A stretch of 64,000 nt of DNA from Sulfuritalea sp. (GTDB taxonomy: Bacteria > Pseudomonadota > Gammaproteobacteria > Burkholderiales > Rhodocyclaceae), in assembly GCF_017302275.1 (NCBI RefSeq), contig NZ_JAFLDR010000016.1, positions 22,156-86,155 on the forward strand, given 5' to 3'. Positions 6,877 to 29,710 of this stretch are shown here, in pieces. The notes beneath the pieces are model-generated. The model was not told where the DNA came from. It saw only the letters and a list, made by a program, of their open reading frames with translations, and did not search any database. Position numbers and translations under genes: made by a program. Within the stretch, counting starts at the first letter, position 1, and each line of letters begins with the position of its first letter.

Positions 6877-7704
6877 TCACGCCGGCCGCGAACGACTGGC
6901 GAATTCGCCACCCACCCGGCGCTTCATGATTCGGGCGTAGAGCCCCGGCGCCAGCCGGGAAAGCCACCAGGCCATGCGCGAGGTGCTGTCGGGCAGCAGT
7001 AGCGCGCGGCCTTCCGCCACGGCCGAGAAAATGCGCCCGGCGATTTCCTCGGGCGAGGATTCGCCGCCGGTGGTGATGCGCGGACCGCTGACCGGCGCGC
7101 CGCTGCCGTCGGTGGCGGCGGCGCCGATGCCGGTGCGGATGAACGACGGGCAGACCACGGTGACGCCTACACCGGCGCCTTCCACTTCACTGCGCAGGCT
7201 GTCGAAAAAGCCATGCAGCGCATGCTTGCTGGCGGCATAACCGGTGCGGCCGGTCAGCGGCGCGAAGCCGGCGACGCTGGAGATGGCGACGACGAAGCCG
7301 CGGCGTGCGACGATGGATCCCAGCGCCGCGCGCGTCAGGTTCGCCGCGCCGAAGAAATTCACTTCCATGACGCGGCGGATCACCGCCGGATCGGTGTCCT
7401 GCAAGAGGCTGCGGGCGCTGATGCCGGCGTTGTTGATCAGGCCGTCGAGCGCGCCGAAATGCGCCAGCGTGGCGGCCACCGCCGAGACGCAGGCGGAGGA
7501 TTCGGTGATGTCGCCGGGGATGCCCAGGGCCTCTGCTCCGCCGGCGCGCAATTCGGAAACCAGGGCATCGAGTTTCCGCGCATCGAAATCCAGGGCGGCG
7601 ATGCGTGCGCCGGCGGCGGCATAAGTCCGGCACAGGGCGGCGCCAAGGCCGCCGGCGGCGCCGGTGATGAGAACGACCTTGCCCTTGAATTCGCGGCTAG
7701 TCAT
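6877..7704 (-). CDS. Short-chain dehydrogenase/reductase (classical SDR)
   Basis: TGAAGGLG, NNAGI, YAASK motifs. Confidence 0.92.
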   Translation of the reverse strand: MTSREFKGKVVLITGAAGGLGAALCRTYAAAGARIAALDFDARKLDALVSELRAGGAEALGIPGDITESSACVSAVAATLAHFGALDGLINNAGISARSLLQDTDPAVIRRVMEVNFFGAANLTRAALGSIVARRGFVVAISSVAGFAPLTGRTGYAASKHALHGFFDSLRSEVEGAGVGVTVVCPSFIRTGIGAAATDGSGAPVSGPRITTGGESSPEEIAGRIFSAVAEGRALLLPDSTSRMAWWLSRLAPGLYARIMKRRVGGEFASRSRPA

Positions 7705-7711
7705 TGCACAC

Positions 7712-7742
7712 GGGGCTTCGACAGGCTCAGCCCGAACGGTGG
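7712..7742 (+). repeat. REP-like element (GGGGCTTCGACAGGCTCAGCCCGAACGGTGG)
   Basis: Near-identical copies at 18554-18584 and, inverted, at 18512-18538. Confidence 0.75.
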
Positions 7743-7759
7743 TTTCACCGGCTCAATTG

Positions 7760-8716
7760 TCATCGGGCCTTGCCTTGACGCGAGCGGCGCCACAGGTCGA
7801 AGACCTCGGCGGAGGTCAGTTTCGGCACGTAGCCGAACTCCTCCTTGAGGCACCGGTTGGCCAGCACCGGGCGGTAGCGCAGGAAATCGATCTGCTCGGG
7901 GCCGTACCGGGTCATGCCCAGCTTCTTCAGCAGCCACAATGCCGCCTGCAGCAGGCCGGGCTGAAGCACTACGCAACGCTTGCCGAGGCGCTCGGCGATC
8001 TCGAAAATCGAAAGCTTGCCGTCGCCGGCGACGTTGAAAATGCCGGTCACGGTCGAATCGACACCTTGCACGATGGCGCCGACCACGTCCTGGTCGTGGA
8101 TGAAGACGAAGGGGCTATCGGAGCCTTTGATCGCGATCAGGCGCGGCTTTTCGAAGAGGTCGGTGATCTGGTTATGCACCGTCGCGCCGAGGATGGTGCC
8201 GATGCGGAACACGATCTGCTCCAGTTGCGGCTGGCTGGCGCGGTACTCGGCAAGCATTTCCTCGACCAGGCGCTTGTGCCAGGAATAGGCGAAGCTCTGG
8301 TTGCCGCGCACCGGGTCGGCCTCGCTCAGCCACTCCGGGTTGTCGGCGTGGTAGCCGTAGGCGGCGCCGCTGGACGAAACGATGATGCGCCTGACGCCAT
8401 GCGCCAGGCAGGCTTCGAGCAGATTGCGGGTGCCGCCGACATCGACGCTGAACTCGAACTCGCGATTGCTCTTTTTCCCCGGCGTTACGATCGAGGCCAG
8501 ATGCACCACGACGCGCGGCCGGTGGCGGCCGACGATGGCATCGACCTCGGCGGCGCGGATGTCGGCACTTTCGTAGATCACGCCCGGCAGGCGTTGCGCC
8601 GGGTCGCGCAGGTCGAGCGCGATCACCTCGATGTCGCCGCGCGCCGCCAGCGCCGCCACCACCTGGCTGCCGAGGTAGCCGGAACTGCCGGTGACGAGGA
8701 CGCAGGCCGGGTTCAT
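7760..8716 (-). CDS. NAD-dependent epimerase/dehydratase (extended SDR)
   Basis: TGSSGYLG, HLAS, SSSGAAYG, YSWHK; ATG 8716 overlaps the upstream gene stop. Confidence 0.88.
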   Translation of the reverse strand: MNPACVLVTGSSGYLGSQVVAALAARGDIEVIALDLRDPAQRLPGVIYESADIRAAEVDAIVGRHRPRVVVHLASIVTPGKKSNREFEFSVDVGGTRNLLEACLAHGVRRIIVSSSGAAYGYHADNPEWLSEADPVRGNQSFAYSWHKRLVEEMLAEYRASQPQLEQIVFRIGTILGATVHNQITDLFEKPRLIAIKGSDSPFVFIHDQDVVGAIVQGVDSTVTGIFNVAGDGKLSIFEIAERLGKRCVVLQPGLLQAALWLLKKLGMTRYGPEQIDFLRYRPVLANRCLKEEFGYVPKLTSAEVFDLWRRSRQGKAR

Positions 8717-9612
8717 GGCGGCGGCCGGCGGCTCCAGTAGGTCGACACCGTGAGGCCGGAAACGATGTGCCAGATGCCCCACCAGGCGGTGACGATGGCC
8801 ATGCCGCCGAGGCCGTCGAAGAAATTGAAAATCAGGATCAGGCCCAGCGCCGAGTTCTGGATGCCGACTTCAATCGACACCGCGCGCCGGTCGCGCTCGG
8901 GCAGGCCGCTGAACTTCGCCGCGAAATAGCCGGTGCTCAGTGCGAGTGCATTGTGGAGGAATACCGCGATCACCACGAATCCGACATAGTCGAGGAAGTA
9001 GCGCCAGTTGGCCGCCAGCGCGCCGATGACGAAGAGCCCGAAGACGCCGATGGAAAAAATCTTCACCGGCTTGTGGGCGCGTTCGACGAACACGGGAAAG
9101 CGATGGCCGGCCCACATACCGACGATCATCGGCAGACCCAGCAGGAGGAACACGGCGAGCAGCATGTCCAGCGGATCGAGGGCAACCACCTTGAGGATCT
9201 TTGCCGTTTCCGGGTTCAGCCCGCCCCACAGCGACAGGTTGAGCGGCGTCATGACGATGGCCACGGCGGTGGACAAGGCCGTCATGGTGATCGACAGCGC
9301 GGTGTTCCCCTTGGCGTAGTGCGTCAGGAAGTTCGAGATGTTGCCGCCCGGACAGGCGGCCACCAGCATCATGCCCAGCGCGATGCTGGCCGAGGGCTTG
9401 ATCACCATGATCAGCAGGAAGGTGAAGGCGGGCAGCAGCAGGAACTGCCCGACTATGCCGATGATCACCGGCTTGGGCATGGTCAGCACGGCCTTGAAGT
9501 CCGCCACCTTGAGGTCGAGCGCGACGCCGAACATCACCAGGCCGATGATGGCGTTGAGCAGCCACAGCGAACCCGGATTGAAATTCAGCCGGACCAGGTC
9601 CATCTCGTTCAT
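8713..9612 (-). CDS. Bile acid:sodium symporter (BASS) family transporter
   Basis: MFGVALDL, ACPGGNISN, EVGIQNSALG motifs. Confidence 0.92.
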   Translation of the reverse strand: MNEMDLVRLNFNPGSLWLLNAIIGLVMFGVALDLKVADFKAVLTMPKPVIIGIVGQFLLLPAFTFLLIMVIKPSASIALGMMLVAACPGGNISNFLTHYAKGNTALSITMTALSTAVAIVMTPLNLSLWGGLNPETAKILKVVALDPLDMLLAVFLLLGLPMIVGMWAGHRFPVFVERAHKPVKIFSIGVFGLFVIGALAANWRYFLDYVGFVVIAVFLHNALALSTGYFAAKFSGLPERDRRAVSIEVGIQNSALGLILIFNFFDGLGGMAIVTAWWGIWHIVSGLTVSTYWSRRPPP

Positions 9613-9637
9613 GGCATCGCCTCCGCCCGCGTCTGGA

Positions 9638-11389
9638 TTAAGCCTTCGGTTCCTCGTGCATCTTCTTGAAATGTATCAAACCCGGCGCCCACATGTGCTT
9701 CACCGGATCGACATCGACGTGGATCACGGCGCAGCCGCCGGTCGCCAGCGCGCGTTGCAGCGCGGGTTTCAAAGCCGCCGGATCGGAGACGCGCTCGCCG
9801 TAGGCGCCCATGCTCTCGCCCAGCTTGTCGAACTTGATTTCGCCGAGGTCGGCCTTGATCGTTTCGTCGGGATCGAGGTGCTTGAAGATCATGGTCTTGA
9901 TCGGCCGCAGCATGAACTGCTGGTTCATCTTGACCATGCCCCACTGCTTGTCGGCAAGAACGATGTAGATCACCTGCGCCTTGTTGCGCACCGCCGTCTC
10001 GACTTCCTGCGAATGGAAGCCCATGGCGCCGTCGCCGATGATGCAGCACACCGGCTTGCCCGGCCGCGCCAGCGCGGCGGCCACGGCCTGCGAGGTGCCG
10101 GCGCCGAGCATGCCGAACTTGAAAGTGGAGACCACCGTGTTGGGCACCGTGACGCGGTGGTAGAACATGGCCCAGATCGTCGCGTTGCCGCCGTCGGCGA
10201 CCAGCACCGAATCCGCGGGGAATACTTCCTGGCAGACAGCGCCGATGTGCGCCGGATGCATCGGCACCGCCATGTCGGAAAGCGCCTTGTCCCAGCCGGC
10301 GCGATCCTCCTGCATGGTCTTCGCGTAGCCGGCGACGCGGGCGCGGCGGGCATCAAGCTTGATCTCGCCCTGGCGCTTCTCCAGTTCGTCGCCCAGGCTT
10401 TCGAGGAAGCGTTTGGCATCGGCCACCACACCGAGGTCGGCGGGCTTGTTCAGCCCGATGATGTCGGCATCGATGTCGACCTGTATGGTCTTCTGCTCGG
10501 ATGGATGGCGCCAGTAGGGCGGCTTGCCCCACCAGTCGGTCTCGCCGATGCGCGAACCGAGGATCAGCACCACGTCGGCGTCGTTGCGCACCTTGTGGTT
10601 GAGCTTGACGTGGGGCATGGTGATGGCCAGCGGCGAATCCTCGCTCAACATGCCACGCGCCGCCCAGCTCGTGGTCACCGGCGCGTGCAGCAGTTCGGCG
10701 ACGCGGCGCAGGGCGTCGTAGGCGTGGCAATGGATGATGCCGCTGCCGGCGTGGATCATCGGAGCGCCCGCCGCGATCAGCCAGTCGGCCGCCTGCTTCA
10801 CCTGTTCAAGAGTCGGCGCTGACGGCACGGCGTTGCGGTACTGGTGCGGCGCCCAGAACGCCACCTCGGCCTTGACCTTGCCGTTCATGATGGTTTCCGG
10901 CACGTCCAGATGCACCACGCCGGGCCGGCCTTCCCAGCTCTTGCGCAAGGCCTTGCGCATCAGTTCCGGCACCCGGTCGAAGGAGGACACGGCCGCGCTC
11001 CACTTGCCGATCTTGCCGATGACCCCGCTCTGGTCGAAGCACTGGTAGCTGCCGCCGCGATCGGGATACATGATGGTCGGCCGGCGCGCGCTGGTGATCG
11101 CCAGCACGCGGTTGCCGTCGGCCTGCTCGACCACCAGGCCGGGCAGCAGGTTGGCGACGCCGGGGCCGTTGCTGGCCATGCAGACGCCGAGCTTGCCGGT
11201 CAGCCGGGCATAGGTGCCGGCCATGTGCGCGGCGCAGGTTTCGTGGCGCGGCGTGACGATCTCGATGCCGAGCCGGTGCAGCGCCGAATAGAAACCGAAA
11301 TAGGTGCCGTCGATGATGCCGAAGACCTTCTCGACGCCTTCCTTCTGCAACATGCGGGCGAGGATTTCGCCGCCACTGATTTCAGCCAT
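9638..11389 (-). CDS. Thiamine pyrophosphate-binding enzyme (acetolactate synthase-like / acyl-CoA lyase-like)
   Basis: RHE catalytic Glu, ASNGPG, GDGAMG TPP motif; RBS GGAGG before ATG 11389. Confidence 0.88.
   Translation of the reverse strand: MAEISGGEILARMLQKEGVEKVFGIIDGTYFGFYSALHRLGIEIVTPRHETCAAHMAGTYARLTGKLGVCMASNGPGVANLLPGLVVEQADGNRVLAITSARRPTIMYPDRGGSYQCFDQSGVIGKIGKWSAAVSSFDRVPELMRKALRKSWEGRPGVVHLDVPETIMNGKVKAEVAFWAPHQYRNAVPSAPTLEQVKQAADWLIAAGAPMIHAGSGIIHCHAYDALRRVAELLHAPVTTSWAARGMLSEDSPLAITMPHVKLNHKVRNDADVVLILGSRIGETDWWGKPPYWRHPSEQKTIQVDIDADIIGLNKPADLGVVADAKRFLESLGDELEKRQGEIKLDARRARVAGYAKTMQEDRAGWDKALSDMAVPMHPAHIGAVCQEVFPADSVLVADGGNATIWAMFYHRVTVPNTVVSTFKFGMLGAGTSQAVAAALARPGKPVCCIIGDGAMGFHSQEVETAVRNKAQVIYIVLADKQWGMVKMNQQFMLRPIKTMIFKHLDPDETIKADLGEIKFDKLGESMGAYGERVSDPAALKPALQRALATGGCAVIHVDVDPVKHMWAPGLIHFKKMHEEPKA
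10808..10830 (+). repeat. Dispersed 23-bp motif, short form inside TPP enzyme CDS
   Basis: AAGAGTCGGCGCTGACGGCACGG; encodes VPSAPTL on the minus strand. Confidence 0.8.
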
Positions 11390-11512
11390 GATTGCCTCCT
11401 TGCAAAGAATTCTTGTCATCGCCCGCGAGCGACGCTTTTGCGCAAGATTAGTCGCTTGCCGCAAAACATCGCTTGTCGCAGAATGCCACCCACTTTGTCA
11501 TTTCACGACAGC

Positions 11513-12586
11513 ATGCGACGAACCGATCCCCAGCCCGAGCCCGACCCGGCCGCCGCGCCCGGCGTCGGCGCCGGCTATGCGCGCCGCCTGTGCGAACTGG
11601 TCGAGCGCTTCGGCCTGCCGCGTCAGGGGCTGCTGCGCCACGCCGGCGCCGATCTCGCCGGTTGGGATCCGGCGCAGGCGCGCATCCCGCTCCCGGCACT
11701 GCTCGCGCTGTTTCGTTCGGCGCTGGTCCTCACCGGCCGGCGCGACCTCGGCCTCGAATTCGGCCGCCACGCCCGGCCGGACACCTTCGAGGTACTCGGC
11801 TACGCGCTGATGACTTGCCGCAACCTCGGCGAGGCCATCAGCCTGGTACCCCGCTATCGCCACGTCGTTTTCGACGCCGGCTACAGCGAAACCCGACTTG
11901 CCCGCGAAGGCGATGCCCTCAAGTTCTCCTGGGTCATCCTGCCCGAGGCCAGCGAAGCCGGCCTGCCCTACAGCGACGTCCTGGCGGAATCCCTGATCGC
12001 CAGCTGGTATGGCCTCGGGCGCTGGATCGCCGGCGCCGATCTGCCCCTGCGCGAAGCACGGTTCCGCCATGCCGCGCCGGAAGACAGCCTGCCCTTCGCC
12101 AATTTTTTTGCCTGCCCCGTGCGCTTTGACGCTGGCGAGAACGCGCTGCTGTTCGCCGCCGAACTGCTGGAGCAACCGCTGGTCCAGGCCGATGCCGAAC
12201 TCAACCTGGCAATGTGCGACGAAGCGCGCCGTTTCATCGAGCGCCGCCACGGCGACACCGGCATCGCCGCCCAGGTCCGCCGGGTGCTGGCACCGCTGAT
12301 GCCGAAGTGCGAGGCGACCCTGGCGCACGTCGCCGGCGCCATGGGCATCACGCCGCGCACCCTGCAACGCCGTCTCGCCAGCGCCGACTGTTCGTTTCAG
12401 GGGCTGCTCGACGACACGCGCCGCGAACTGGCGCAGGTGTATCTGCGCGATGCCGCCTTGTCGGCTCTGGATGTCGCCCTGCTGCTGGGCTATGCCGAGC
12501 AAAGCTCGTTCACCCGCGCCTTCCGCCACTGGTTCGACACCACGCCGTCCGCTTGGCGTGCCCGCCACGCACCACCCTCGACCTGA
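11513..12586 (+). CDS. AraC family transcriptional regulator (arabinose-binding_2 type N-domain)
   Basis: C-terminal double HTH: AMGITPRTLQRRL, LLLGYAEQSSFTRAFRHWFDTTPSAWR; divergent from the TPP operon. Confidence 0.92.
   Translation: MRRTDPQPEPDPAAAPGVGAGYARRLCELVERFGLPRQGLLRHAGADLAGWDPAQARIPLPALLALFRSALVLTGRRDLGLEFGRHARPDTFEVLGYALMTCRNLGEAISLVPRYRHVVFDAGYSETRLAREGDALKFSWVILPEASEAGLPYSDVLAESLIASWYGLGRWIAGADLPLREARFRHAAPEDSLPFANFFACPVRFDAGENALLFAAELLEQPLVQADAELNLAMCDEARRFIERRHGDTGIAAQVRRVLAPLMPKCEATLAHVAGAMGITPRTLQRRLASADCSFQGLLDDTRRELAQVYLRDAALSALDVALLLGYAEQSSFTRAFRHWFDTTPSAWRARHAPPST
12370..12392 (-). repeat. Dispersed 23-bp motif, short form inside AraC CDS
   Basis: AACAGTCGGCGCTGGCGAGACGG (reverse strand); encodes RLASADC. 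Confidence 0.8.
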
Positions 12587-12617
12587 ATTGCAGCACCCCC
12601 GTCCCGGAGACAACGCC

Positions 12618-13712
12618 ATGCGCCAACTCATCATGCTTGCCTTGATGATCTTTCCGCCGCTCACCGTCGCGCAATCGCTGGGCAGCATCAAGCTGCCTCC
12701 CGGCTTTTCGATCGAGCATTGGGCGAAGGTAGACAACGCGCGCCAGATGGCGCTGGGCGCGACCGACACCCGGGGTGGCGTGCTCTACGTCGGCTCGCGC
12801 CGGGCCGGCACCGTGCACGCGGTGCGCTTCGACGCCGCCTATCGCGCCGGCGCCGCGATCCGCGTCGCCGCCGGACTGAACATGCCCAGCGGCCTGGCCT
12901 GGCGCAATGGCGCGCTGTATGTCGGCGCGGTGAACCGCGTCCTGCGCTACGATGACATCGACAATCGCCTCGACAATCCGCCAGCGCCGGTGGTGGTCAC
13001 CGACAGCCTGCCGCATGACACCCACCACGGCTGGAAGTTCATTGCCTTCGGCCCCGACGGCAAGCTTTACGTGCCAGTCGGCGCGCCCTGCAACATCTGC
13101 GAACCCGGCGAGCCCTACGCATCCATATTGCGCATGAACGCCGACGGCTCGGGGCGCGAGGTATTCGCGCGCGGCGTGCGCAACAGCGTCGGCTTCGACT
13201 GGAGCCCTGTCGACGGCACGCTGTGGTTCACCGACAACGGCCGCGACCTGATGGGCGACGATGTCCCGCCCGATGAACTGAATCGCGCACCACGCGCCGG
13301 CATGCATTTCGGCTACCCGTATTGCCACGGCGGCGAGATCGCCGACCCCGAATACGGCGTGCGGCGCAAGTGCGCCGACTTCGAACCGCCGGCGCGGAAA
13401 CTCGACCCGCACGTGGCGGGACTCGGCATGCGCTTCTACTCCGGCACGATGTTCCCCGCTGAGTACCGCAACCAGATCTTCATCGCCGAGCACGGCTCGT
13501 GGAACCGCTCGAAGAAGATCGGCTACAGGGTTTCGCTGGTGCGCGTGAAGGATGGCCGCGCCGTGAGTTATGAAACTTTCGCGAGCGGCTGGCTGCAGGG
13601 CGAATCGGCCTGGGGCCGGCCGGCCGACGTGCTGGTGCTGCCTGACGGATCGCTGCTGGTGGCCGACGACCAGGCCGGCGCGATCTATCGCATCCGCTAC
13701 GGCGCGCGTTGA
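12618..13712 (+). CDS. PQQ-dependent sugar / sorbosone dehydrogenase family protein
   Basis: Signal peptide; HHGWKFIAFGPDGKLY, GVRNSVGFDW, DNGRD, GRPADV; RBS GGAG. Confidence 0.88.
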   Translation: MRQLIMLALMIFPPLTVAQSLGSIKLPPGFSIEHWAKVDNARQMALGATDTRGGVLYVGSRRAGTVHAVRFDAAYRAGAAIRVAAGLNMPSGLAWRNGALYVGAVNRVLRYDDIDNRLDNPPAPVVVTDSLPHDTHHGWKFIAFGPDGKLYVPVGAPCNICEPGEPYASILRMNADGSGREVFARGVRNSVGFDWSPVDGTLWFTDNGRDLMGDDVPPDELNRAPRAGMHFGYPYCHGGEIADPEYGVRRKCADFEPPARKLDPHVAGLGMRFYSGTMFPAEYRNQIFIAEHGSWNRSKKIGYRVSLVRVKDGRAVSYETFASGWLQGESAWGRPADVLVLPDGSLLVADDQAGAIYRIRYGAR

Positions 13713-18511: not shown

Positions 18512-18584
18512 CCGTTCGCGTTGAGCCTGTCGAAACGCAAGTCTGCCAGATCAGGGGCTTCGACAAGCTCAGCCCGAACGGTGG
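18512..18584. repeat. Inverted pair of REP-like elements forming a long hairpin
   Basis: CCGTTCGCGTTGAGCCTGTCGAA ... TTCGACAAGCTCAGCCCGAACGG; same family as 7712-7742. Confidence 0.8.
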
Positions 18585-28291: not shown

Positions 28292-29710
28292 ATGAACGCG
28301 TTCCAGCCCGCCAATTCGGAGTACATCGAGAATCGCACCTTCGACGAGATCAGCGTCGGCGACAGCGCGACCCTGGTGCGCACGCTGCGCCACGAGGACA
28401 TCCAGATGTACGCCATCATGTCGGGGGACATCAATCCCTCGCACGTCGATCCGGAATACGCGAATTCGTCGATGCTGCGCGAGGTGATCGCCCACGGCAT
28501 GTGGGGTGGCGCGCTGATTTCCAACGTGCTGGGAACCCAGTTTCCCGGCCCGGGCACGGTCTACAAGGATCAGACGCTGCACTTCGCGCAGCCGGTGCGG
28601 GTCGGCGATACGCTGACGGTGACCGTCACCTGCGAGAAGAAATTCCCGCGCAACCACCACATGGTGTTCGACTGCCTCTGCGTCAATCAGGACGGACAGA
28701 AGGTCATCACCGGCACGGCGGAAGTGCTGGCGCCGACCGAGAAGGTCAAGCGCCTCAAGGCCAACCTGCCCGATTTCAAGCTGTCGGAAACGCGCAAGGC
28801 GCGCTTCGAGCACCTGCTGGAAATCATGCGCGGCCTGACGCCGATCTCGATGGCGGTGGCCCACCCCTGCGATACCGAGTCGCTGCGGGGCGCGCTGCTG
28901 GCGCGAGATCGCGGCCTGATCGTGCCGACCCTGGTCGGGCCCGAGGAGAAAATCCGCCAGATCGCCGAAGCCAACGCGCTCGACCTGTACGGCTGCACCC
29001 TGATCAACGTCGCCCACAGCCATGCGGCCGCCGAAGTGGCGGTGTCGCTGGCACGCGAAGGCCAGGTCGAAGCGCTGATGAAGGGCTCGCTGCACACCGA
29101 CGAACTGATGAGCGAAGTGGTGGACAAGGCGACCGGCCTGCGCACCGAACGGCGCATCAGCCATGTGTTCCTGATGGACGTGCCGACCTATCCGCGCCTG
29201 CTGTTCATCACCGACGCGGCGGTCAACGTCGCGCCCGACCTGGAAACCAAGGTCGACATCGTGCAGAACGCCATCGACCTGGCGCGCATGCTGAAGATCG
29301 CCGATCCCAAGGTGGCGATCCTCGCCGCGGTGGAAACCGTCAACCTCAAGATGCAGGCCACGCTCGACGCCGCCGCGCTGTGCAAGATGGCCGACCGCGG
29401 CCAGATCACCGGCGGCCTGCTTGACGGCCCGTTGGCCTTCGACAACGCGATCTCGGTGGTCGCCGCGCGCACCAAGGGCATCAAGTCGGCGGTGGCCGGC
29501 CAGGCCGACATCCTGCTGGTGCCGGACATCGAATCGGGCAACATGCTGGCCAAGCAACTGGAATACCTCGCCGATGCGCTGACCTCGGGCATCGTGCTCG
29601 GCGCCCGGGTGCCGATCGTGCTCACCAGCCGCGCCGACTCCGCCGAAACCCGCACCGCCTCCACCGCGGTGGCGATGGTCATGGCCCACGCCAAGCGCAA
29701 GAAGGCTTGA
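28292..29710 (+). CDS. Bifunctional MaoC-type enoyl-CoA hydratase / phosphate acetyl(butyryl)transferase
   Basis: SGDINPSHVD, IAHGMW (MaoC); LMKGSLHTDE, DGPLAFDNAIS, VPDIESGNML, LTSRADS (PTA/PTB). Confidence 0.93.
   Translation: MNAFQPANSEYIENRTFDEISVGDSATLVRTLRHEDIQMYAIMSGDINPSHVDPEYANSSMLREVIAHGMWGGALISNVLGTQFPGPGTVYKDQTLHFAQPVRVGDTLTVTVTCEKKFPRNHHMVFDCLCVNQDGQKVITGTAEVLAPTEKVKRLKANLPDFKLSETRKARFEHLLEIMRGLTPISMAVAHPCDTESLRGALLARDRGLIVPTLVGPEEKIRQIAEANALDLYGCTLINVAHSHAAAEVAVSLAREGQVEALMKGSLHTDELMSEVVDKATGLRTERRISHVFLMDVPTYPRLLFITDAAVNVAPDLETKVDIVQNAIDLARMLKIADPKVAILAAVETVNLKMQATLDAAALCKMADRGQITGGLLDGPLAFDNAISVVAARTKGIKSAVAGQADILLVPDIESGNMLAKQLEYLADALTSGIVLGARVPIVLTSRADSAETRTASTAVAMVMAHAKRKKA

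Follow-up and report, generated by a model that had tools for sequence, protein, structure and literature searches.

A recurrent four-gene operon of Sulfuritalea built on a candidate new subfamily of thiamine diphosphate enzymes, with a tentative link to organosulfonate catabolism

A 64,000-nucleotide stretch of a Sulfuritalea genome (G000:C8:22156-86155), here called the window, contains between positions 6877 and 12586 a predicted catabolic operon that would be built on a new subfamily of thiamine diphosphate (ThDP) enzymes. Four genes on the minus strand, encoding the ThDP enzyme, a BASS-type symporter, an extended short-chain dehydrogenase/reductase (SDR) and a classical SDR, form a cassette that recurs in other bacteria, and a gene for an AraC-type regulator diverges from them. 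In some carriers the cassette lies directly behind xsc, the gene for the sulfoacetaldehyde-cleaving enzyme Xsc. Our leading interpretation, which we hold tentatively, is that the cassette is a self-contained, horizontally mobile catabolic unit that would provide an upper pathway for a small organosulfonate bearing a hydroxyl group, with 3-sulfolactate as the likeliest candidate.

Organization and distribution of the cassette

Candidate open reading frames (ORFs) in the window were profiled with Pfam and NCBIfam. The initial annotation had described a TPP (that is, ThDP) enzyme, a BASS symporter, an extended SDR and a classical SDR in one tight operon divergent from an AraC regulator; all five genes were confirmed in place, and Pfam domains and spacing bear the description out. 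The ThDP enzyme is encoded at 9638-11389 (minus strand) within an ORF spanning 9638..11464(-); its real start, MAEISGG at 11389, gives the 583 amino acids (aa) common to all homologues, and Pfam TPP_enzyme_N, TPP_enzyme_M and TPP_enzyme_C all exceed their gathering scores. After 25 bp follows the gene for a 299-aa BASS/SBF Na+-coupled organic-anion symporter (8713-9612, minus strand; Pfam SBF 111.9 bits against 24.3), the stop codon of which shares a 4-bp ATGA overlap with the ATG of the extended SDR gene. The extended SDR (318 aa, 7760-8716, minus strand) has the NAD-dependent epimerase/dehydratase/3beta-HSD fold and starts at MNPACV (8716) within an ORF of 7760..8782(-). The classical SDR (275 aa, 6877-7704, minus strand) comes 55 bp further on, and the intergenic region between the operon and the AraC gene measures 123 bp.

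The partner proteins carry the marks of their families. With its SBF domain the symporter belongs to the BASS family and aligns to ASBT_NM (3zux/8oyf; E 1.6e-40), with which it shares its fold and the motifs CPGGxxSN, a Q in the third transmembrane helix and IEVGxQNS; from the 3zux structure we take these to form the Na+ site. PanS is of the same fold family, and the only NCBIfam models matched are that of PanS (146 bits against an equivalog cut-off of 400) and the general BASS model TIGR00841, which stays below its cut-off of 326. The extended SDR has the motifs GSSGYLG and YSWHK, scores higher with Pfam Epimerase (98.5 bits) than with 3Beta_HSD (54 bits) and reaches no specific NCBIfam equivalog, while the classical SDR has TGAAGGLG, NNAG, SSVAG and YAASK and matches Pfam adh_short (174.7 bits) and NF004825 (283 bits, above the 215-bit cut-off). 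Sequence searches of the PDB returned distant generic matches for both SDRs and no close solved relative of the extended one.

With each species represented by a single genome, a scan detected the cassette in at least 573 species-level genomes. The best 80 were fetched, and 81 loci are counted below. In these 80 the ThDP homologues are 72-99% identical to ours, the 99% relative being a Sulfuritalea metagenome-assembled genome (locus L013). The carriers among them belong to Rhodocyclales, to Burkholderiales (Rubrivivax, Rhodoferax, Limnobacter, Ottowia) and to Wenzhouxiangella, Lysobacterales, Steroidobacteraceae, Rhodoblastus, Hyphomicrobiales and Gemmatimonadota. The four-gene arrangement is not due to chance, because the same genes recur in the order ThDP enzyme, symporter, extended SDR, classical SDR in most of the 81 loci from other species. 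The genes that flank them are unrelated from locus to locus (278 neighbouring genes fall into 199 clusters), and the linkage survives inversion: in L071, L080 and L084 the symporter-SDR-SDR block is turned round against the ThDP gene, convergent with it and still adjacent. When 250 genomes were sampled evenly across the order, the ThDP gene turned up in just one more of them. The cassette is therefore rare and patchy, and has moved between phyla; a tblastn search against plasmids found no match to it.

Gene fusions join the same enzymes in several combinations: ThDP enzyme with extended SDR (P0123, 56% identical, and P0276), extended SDR with classical SDR (L107), classical SDR with ThDP enzyme (P0162) and D-2-hydroxyacid dehydrogenase with ThDP enzyme (P0233). 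From these natural fusions it follows that the three enzymes would act together. The P0233 fusion, read from its domains, would show the succession of 2-hydroxy acid, 2-oxo acid and ThDP step, and a 2-hydroxy-acid dehydrogenase feeding a ThDP enzyme appears to be a recurring design in this part of the superfamily. In a sister subfamily (53-56% identity), known from Myxococcota, Planctomycetota and other groups, a TetR gene diverges from the genes for ThDP enzyme, extended SDR and classical SDR, and there is no transporter. The relatives P0124 and P0125 are 46-53% identical and sit on contigs too short to show their neighbours, and more distant ThDP relatives pair with a single SDR or a zinc-dependent alcohol dehydrogenase (Zn-ADH).

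The ThDP enzyme (72-99% identity) is much better conserved than its partners (symporter 44-98%, extended SDR 49-93%, classical SDR 37-84%). The symporters and the SDRs each split into two identity classes that do not co-vary, which suggests recombination between cassette variants. In seven gammaproteobacterial loci (L086, L083, L087, L088 and L090-L092) a wax-ester synthase/DGAT gene lies downstream of the cassette, and in L001 a PlsC-like acyltransferase gene and a CdsA-like gene do; this is probably lineage synteny.

Cassette DNA was also found in activated-sludge and wastewater metagenomes. Contigs from three sludge metatranscriptome studies contain parts of all five genes at 95-99% identity, one junction, that of symporter and extended SDR, being bridged. 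These contigs come from close relatives and may include carried-over DNA, and are a weak hint of expression and no proof of an operon transcript; gaps in their coverage carry no meaning.

Placement and cofactor site of the ThDP enzyme

The ThDP enzyme is a member of the ThDP superfamily of the POX/ALS/decarboxylase type, having the three domains, the catalytic Glu and the GDG motif with Asp at +27, and its AF2 model (pLDDT 94.3) has the canonical fold. It falls below all curated NCBIfam cut-offs, and so outside acetolactate synthase (ALS; TIGR00118, 274.3 bits against 538.35), Xsc (TIGR03457, 247 against 676.4) and HACL (NF058623, 213 against 600). A genome-wide search with the ComDE-type model TIGR03845 gave one 59-bit match, on another contig, and nothing at the ThDP gene. 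An exhaustive profile-free search returned close homologues at 72-99% identity, a few relatives at 46-56% and the remaining superfamily below 38%; a look-up in the ESM Atlas gave generic ThDP clusters only.

We built a maximum-likelihood tree of 93 sequences, anchored on E. coli IlvB, IlvI, Gcl, Oxc and PoxB, on the genome's own ALS and Xsc and on cassette-linked Xsc. The family of the ThDP enzyme forms one clade with support of 99, or 100 when the 46-53% identical relatives are included, and is nested in an uncharacterised clade of 29 sequences whose sampled members carry x-D-xxWG[ML]. This larger clade is sister to the group that holds Oxc, not inside it, and is separate from both ALS/Gcl and Xsc. 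The genome's own ALS groups elsewhere with IlvB and IlvI (SH-aLRT 95), Gcl being next to them (SH-aLRT 87), and Xsc likewise stands apart (support 100). Taken together, scores and tree argue that the enzyme represents a new subfamily of the ALS/POX/HACL (decarboxylase-type) superfamily.

Pipelines at JGI label its homologues 'acetolactate synthase large subunit', an identity that we rejected on the sub-threshold score, the separate clade and the presence of real ilvI-ilvH genes elsewhere. The true large subunit, ilvI, scores 828 bits at C12:40247-41935, and the genome's sole match to the small-subunit model TIGR00119 lies directly downstream of it (G000:C12:39759-40229); none lies beside the ThDP gene, as the initial annotation had noticed. 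IlvB/IlvI with IlvN/IlvH thus share with our enzyme the superfamily and the three Pfam domains, and differ from it in clade and in having a small subunit. The earlier proposal of a unit for uptake, redox and C-C cleavage, not for branched-chain amino-acid synthesis, is upheld by the ALS score (274 against 538 bits) and by the position of ilvIH, and the phylogeny that had been proposed as a check does not group the enzyme with IlvB or IlvI.

The best PDB matches by sequence and by fold are the HKA synthase BbmA, HACS/HACL, benzaldehyde lyase and acetohydroxyacid synthase (AHAS), at 24-28% identity and TM of about 0.83-0.86; formolase is also among the nearest folds. BbmA (PDB 8x3x) stands first (213 bits by sequence; Foldseek TM 0.83-0.91), but at 28% identity it keeps NN at the metal site and is a biosynthetic carboligase in a different gene context. 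HACL, HACS and OXC, which are top matches by fold and by sequence, are the nearest characterised clade of the tree and have the three-domain fold, the catalytic Glu and, following the Mg motif, a W in common with our enzyme; they differ in sequence (24-27% identity) and in having Asn where our enzyme has Asp at the Mg-ligand position, and no CoA ligase or transferase is linked to the cassette. Xsc belongs to the same superfamily, has [KR]QWG after the Mg motif as our enzyme does and also lacks the first Asn (H-N), yet it is a separate clade at 26-30% identity (26-28% for the genome's own copies).

The cofactor motif had been read as GDG...VLADKQWG, with the Mg-binding Asn pair replaced by Ala-Asp. 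The string itself is correct: the enzyme has GDG-x24-A-D-KQWG (G452-D453-G454 ... A479-D480), and a HMMER alignment to an actinobacterial HACL places A-D opposite N-N. To speak of a Mg-binding pair was an overstatement. In Zymomonas mobilis pyruvate decarboxylase (D440/N467/G469) the sole Mg binder of the Asn pair is the residue 27 positions after the Asp of GDG, a position that we take to be the second N of NN and hence Asp480 here. The first position is variable: E. coli IlvI, IlvB, Gcl and Oxc read N-N, and a bona fide Xsc of this very genome reads H-N. Asp480 is invariant in the family (of 120 close homologues, 108 have C-D and 12 have A-D), is kept at the Mg-ligand position in 119 of 120 members of the next subfamily and predominates (75 of 119) among representatives of the nearest 50%-identity clusters. 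The Asp variant would therefore be a clade signature, denoting neither a crippled nor an exotic site, and the description of the enzyme as atypical is not supported. Asp can presumably replace Asn as Mg ligand, and the cofactor-activating Glu50 (PRHE) is, like GDG, invariant in an alignment of 60 sequences.

Linkage to sulfonate genes and the candidate substrate

The functional gene found most often beside the cassette is xsc, which in 12 loci lies directly upstream, co-oriented, behind a divergent IclR gene and separated from the ThDP gene by 10-13 bp. The Xsc encoded there is bona fide (946-958 bits against cut-offs of 620 and 676). On the ThDP tree the linkage requires at least two to three gains or losses, one xsc-linked locus (L019) being nested among Sulfuritalea of the AraC type. 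Furthermore, the single additional carrier in the 250-genome sample (L117, G186:C67:66627-70122) consists of a bare xsc-ThDP pair with an 11-bp gap; there are no BASS or SDR genes within 8 kb, and the surroundings are unrelated signalling genes and a Crp-type regulator.

What otherwise follows such an xsc was seen in twelve other genomes with xsc in the same score range, 11 of them without an adjacent ThDP gene of the family and the twelfth being L117. IclR is divergent from xsc in seven of the 11. In six of the 11, SauS and a CoA ligase (SauT) come after xsc, in most cases with TctC or TctCBA in between, and pta is next in two of the six; SauS, scanned in one locus, scores 784 bits against a cut-off of 600. 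By their annotation TctCBA, SauS, CoA ligase and pta are genes of the pathway from sulfoacetate to sulfoacetaldehyde. Since the same IclR-xsc head, within the same xsc subclade, is otherwise followed by these genes, the cassette appears to take the slot of a module comprising a transporter and enzymes that produce sulfoacetaldehyde. The two arrangements thus agree in head, in xsc subclade and in a layout of transporter plus enzymes that would deliver sulfoacetaldehyde to Xsc, whereas the transporters and enzymes are unrelated, and the window has an AraC head, with xsc on other contigs.

A gene of the TauE/SafE family (sulfite/sulfonate TSUP) is the divergent neighbour in five gammaproteobacterial loci, and another lies beside the TetR gene of the P0123 fusion (56% identical), together with a pyridoxal phosphate (PLP) decarboxylase. 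On the genome scale, xsc is present in 27 of 50 cassette genomes (54%) and in 38 of the 250 genomes of the order sample (15%), a 3.6-fold enrichment. As a side observation, a group-II PLP decarboxylase (Pyridoxal_deC), with an unannotated protein encoded behind it, occurs in the contexts of both P0123 and P0140, in one of them with TauE, and may be a link of the cysteate or taurine type.

The Sulfuritalea genome of the window, which is 100% complete, carries bona fide xsc twice, at G000:C1:217756-219510 and G000:C23:37777-39531; the two copies share 93% identity and lie on contigs other than that of the window. One belongs to a LysR-xsc-pta group with IclR and major facilitator superfamily genes upstream, and the other is solitary, opposite IclR. 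Neither ComDE, nor a SuyB-family protein, nor a second HisD-like (HpsN) gene was found in the genome, and the known routes for C3-sulfonates were therefore not found in it.

These observations are the basis of the proposed pathway. The BASS carrier would import a hydroxylated sulfonate anion with Na+; the two SDRs would oxidise the 2-hydroxyl, probably one for each enantiomer, to give 3-sulfopyruvate; and the ThDP enzyme would decarboxylate this to sulfoacetaldehyde, as a non-orthologous replacement of ComDE. Xsc, which the genome has, would be joined to the cassette by cleaving sulfoacetaldehyde to acetyl phosphate and sulfite, with Pta completing the route. We infer every enzymatic step from what the genomes display, namely gene content, order, coupling, linkage, conservation of the unit and family placement. 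It is possible, and we go no further than that, that the enzyme represents a sulfopyruvate decarboxylase of a class not yet described, or else a sulfoacetaldehyde-forming ThDP lyase, and that with the symporter and the two SDRs it constitutes an unrecognised, horizontally spreading route for the mineralisation of C3-organosulfonates (sulfolactate or 2,3-dihydroxypropane-1-sulfonate (DHPS), from sulfoquinovose) in Proteobacteria of freshwater, groundwater and wastewater. The initial annotation had named an organic acid, a steroid or a sulfonate-like compound; the sulfonate gains comparative support from the xsc and TauE neighbourhoods, and nothing specific supports the steroid.

The closest functional parallel is the route of the Roseobacter group (SlcD/SlcC/ComC, ComDE, Xsc, Pta), which has the same order as proposed here, from dehydrogenase to ThDP decarboxylase to Xsc; two enantiomers would have to be handled in both, and both show genomic linkage to xsc. 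However, no cassette protein is orthologous to its counterpart: a single 583-aa ThDP enzyme of the ALS/HACL type stands against the split ComD/ComE, SDRs serve as the dehydrogenases, and a BASS carrier takes the place of a tripartite tricarboxylate (TTT) or TRAP transporter. In the library searched, we found no description of the cassette or of a sulfopyruvate decarboxylase of the ALS/HACL type and nothing of relevance on BbmA, and a 2026 review names only SuyAB, Xsc, CuyA and glycyl-radical routes for sulfur release (PMC13436972).

Several points weigh against a sulfonate substrate. The nearest characterised relatives of the ThDP enzyme, CoA-ester lyases and carboligases at 24-28% identity, say nothing about sulfonates, and we know of no sulfolactate dehydrogenase that is an SDR. 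Two of the sister-form loci (L109, L110) adjoin GT-C/GT87 glycosyltransferase genes. In 22 of the 50 cassette genomes (44%, where 27 of the 50 carry it), including two Wenzhouxiangella isolates, xsc is absent, and Xsc is therefore not obligatory. In some 65 of the 81 loci the vicinity is free of sulfonate genes. All the xsc-linked loci come from Rhodocyclales-like relatives, so that the counts overstate their independence, and the TauE family is so common (8 members in this genome) that its adjacency may be chance. The TetR-type sister form has no sulfonate genes in the three contexts with recorded neighbours (L107, L109, L110). Given the carriers without xsc, the loci without sulfonate genes, the kinship, the commonness of TauE and the TetR-type form, a non-sulfonated 2-hydroxy or 2-oxo acid is nearly as likely a substrate, doubtful as that too must be.

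On this alternative the same cassette would serve a small 2-hydroxy/2-oxo carboxylate or vicinal-diol acid (pantoate-, glycerate- or lactate-like), which the BASS protein would import, an SDR oxidise and the ThDP enzyme decarboxylate or cleave as an acyloin, leaving the second SDR for the aldehyde or the other enantiomer. Transporter and relatives are both in keeping with it: the symporter, besides aligning with ASBT_NM, matches only the general BASS model and the ketopantoate/pantoate carrier PanS (146 bits), the wider clade includes the fusion to a D-2-hydroxyacid dehydrogenase, and genes of the sister clade are paired with SDR or Zn-ADH. The 44% of carriers without xsc and the TetR-type trio without a sulfonate context also speak for it. 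It leaves unexplained, however, the placement behind IclR-xsc, the bare xsc-ThDP pair, the TauE neighbours and the 3.6-fold enrichment of xsc, and the cassette is accompanied by neither an aldehyde dehydrogenase gene nor any other downstream gene.

A sulfonate variant of the sulfolactate model, which we consider improbable, starts from DHPS: the two SDRs would oxidise both enantiomers at C2, as HpsO/HpsP do, to 3-hydroxy-2-oxopropanesulfonate, and a ThDP lyase of the HACL/BAL/formolase type would split this into sulfoacetaldehyde and a C1 unit. We know of no precedent for ThDP cleavage of 3-hydroxy-2-oxopropanesulfonate, and the fusion to a 2-hydroxyacid dehydrogenase in relatives favours 2-oxo-acid chemistry. 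Formaldehyde would be released, and the cassette has no linked gene for dealing with it. HACS/HACL, benzaldehyde lyase and formolase are among the nearest folds and the family is sister to a clade of the Oxc/HACL type, but the similarity to lyases is no higher than that to AHAS. All the xsc and TauE evidence applies to this variant as well, HpsN was not found in the genome, and two SDRs fit the known two-enantiomer problem of DHPS (PMC13436972).

Slightly less probable still is a biosynthetic role, in which the ThDP enzyme would act as a carboligase, making an acyloin or an alpha-hydroxy-beta-keto acid or adding a two-carbon branch to a keto-sugar in the manner of YerE/YerF, with the SDRs reducing and the BASS protein exporting the product. 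The best PDB match, the HKA synthase BbmA (213 bits; TM 0.83), the sugar-nucleotide epimerase/dehydratase fold of the extended SDR and the glycosyltransferase genes (GT-C/GT87) next to the TetR-type trio in L109 and L110 all lend themselves to it. Yet BASS proteins use Na+ to drive import and this one retains the Na+-site motifs, AraC proteins with Arabinose_bd and IclR proteins typically regulate catabolic operons, genes for precursor supply or tailoring do not accompany the cassette, and the xsc linkage has no biosynthetic reading.

Transformation of steroids or bile salts is very unlikely. It would combine a carrier of the bile-acid type with 3beta-HSD-like or hydroxysteroid-type SDRs in a member of the Sterolibacteriaceae, the family in which Sulfuritalea is placed, and it draws on the 54-bit 3Beta_HSD match of the extended SDR, on the name of the BASS family and on a homologue in a Sterolibacterium metagenome-assembled genome. 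But the Epimerase model outscores 3Beta_HSD, the NCBIfam description of PanS gives the small hydroxy and oxo acids ketopantoate, pantoate and pantothenate as the cargo of a bacterial BASS carrier, the cassette is not linked to genes for steroid degradation, many of the carrier lineages are not known as steroid degraders, and we know of no ThDP step in steroid catabolism. Finally, an extra acetolactate/acetohydroxyacid synthase isozyme, suggested by the JGI names and the 274-bit TIGR00118 match, is already contradicted by a score below the 538-bit cut-off, by the true ilvI (828 bits) and only ilvH elsewhere, by separation from the IlvB/IlvI/Gcl clade and by the want of an adjacent small subunit, and hardly merits further consideration.

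Regulatory region, local features and implications

The regulator gene occupies 11513-12586 on the plus strand, within an ORF of 10844..12586(+), and its product belongs to the AraC/XylS family: Arabinose_bd (PF12625, 140.8 bits) and HTH_18 (61.8 bits) lie in the C-terminal 357 aa, which are the protein proper, and the models for QhpR, GliR and CypR are all below their cut-offs. The start at 11513 is conserved as ATG or GTG, and an ATG upstream, at 11483, is not. In about 13 of the 81 loci (Sulfuritalea and some Rubrivivax) the AraC gene accompanies the cassette; the remaining loci have IclR-xsc, TauE, TetR or unrelated neighbours instead.

An alignment of the 13 AraC-type loci reveals an operator-like block of about 40 bp (11471-11510) that hardly varies, in contrast to the diverging DNA on either side. 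Read on the operon strand, it consists of TGTCGTGAAATGACAAA, 8 variable bases and GGCATTCTGCGACAAGC, and it ends directly upstream of a -10-like TAATCT (11445-11450, plus-strand coordinates); a local direct repeat is present at the block in the window. A generic scan for sigma-70 promoters and terminators gave nothing usable. The conserved promoter block makes a good, if circumstantial, case for control of the operon by AraC in this lineage. The initial annotation of the operon as AraC-controlled thus appears sound for Sulfuritalea and its like, and does not extend to the cassette in general.

The 55-bp gap between the two SDR genes contains a 24-nt element (7711-7734, minus strand) with a second copy at 18553-18576, two matches in the window where none is expected. 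Its predicted fold is no better than that of shuffled sequence. It looks like a small insertion within the operon, because in other loci the extended and classical SDR genes abut or overlap without a gap.

Next to the AraC gene, at 12450-13712, lies a gene for a GSDH/PVC-type haem-binding-domain (DUF7133) protein, which is kept beside the cassette in several Sulfuritalea loci without an evident operon link. In L019 (L019:1615-7000), from another Sulfuritalea, IclR and xsc replace AraC at the same chromosomal site, and the flanking GSDH-like gene is 81% identical. A MaoC-PTA gene is adjacent there; the pta homologue of the window lies 15 kb away, at 28292-29704, the window having some 15 kb of extra DNA between GSDH and pta (11513-13712, 28292-29704). 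We considered the nearness of pta in L019 as a functional link and rejected it as local synteny.

In the organic sulfur cycle, sulfolactate and DHPS count among the major currencies. If the cassette is a further entry to Xsc, the reading of sulfonate-degrading potential from metagenomes would change, and a new substrate class would be added to the ThDP enzymes of the HACL/ALS type. Even with a non-sulfonated substrate, a recurrent operon that had no described function and whose key enzyme is annotated as 'acetolactate synthase' is now defined.

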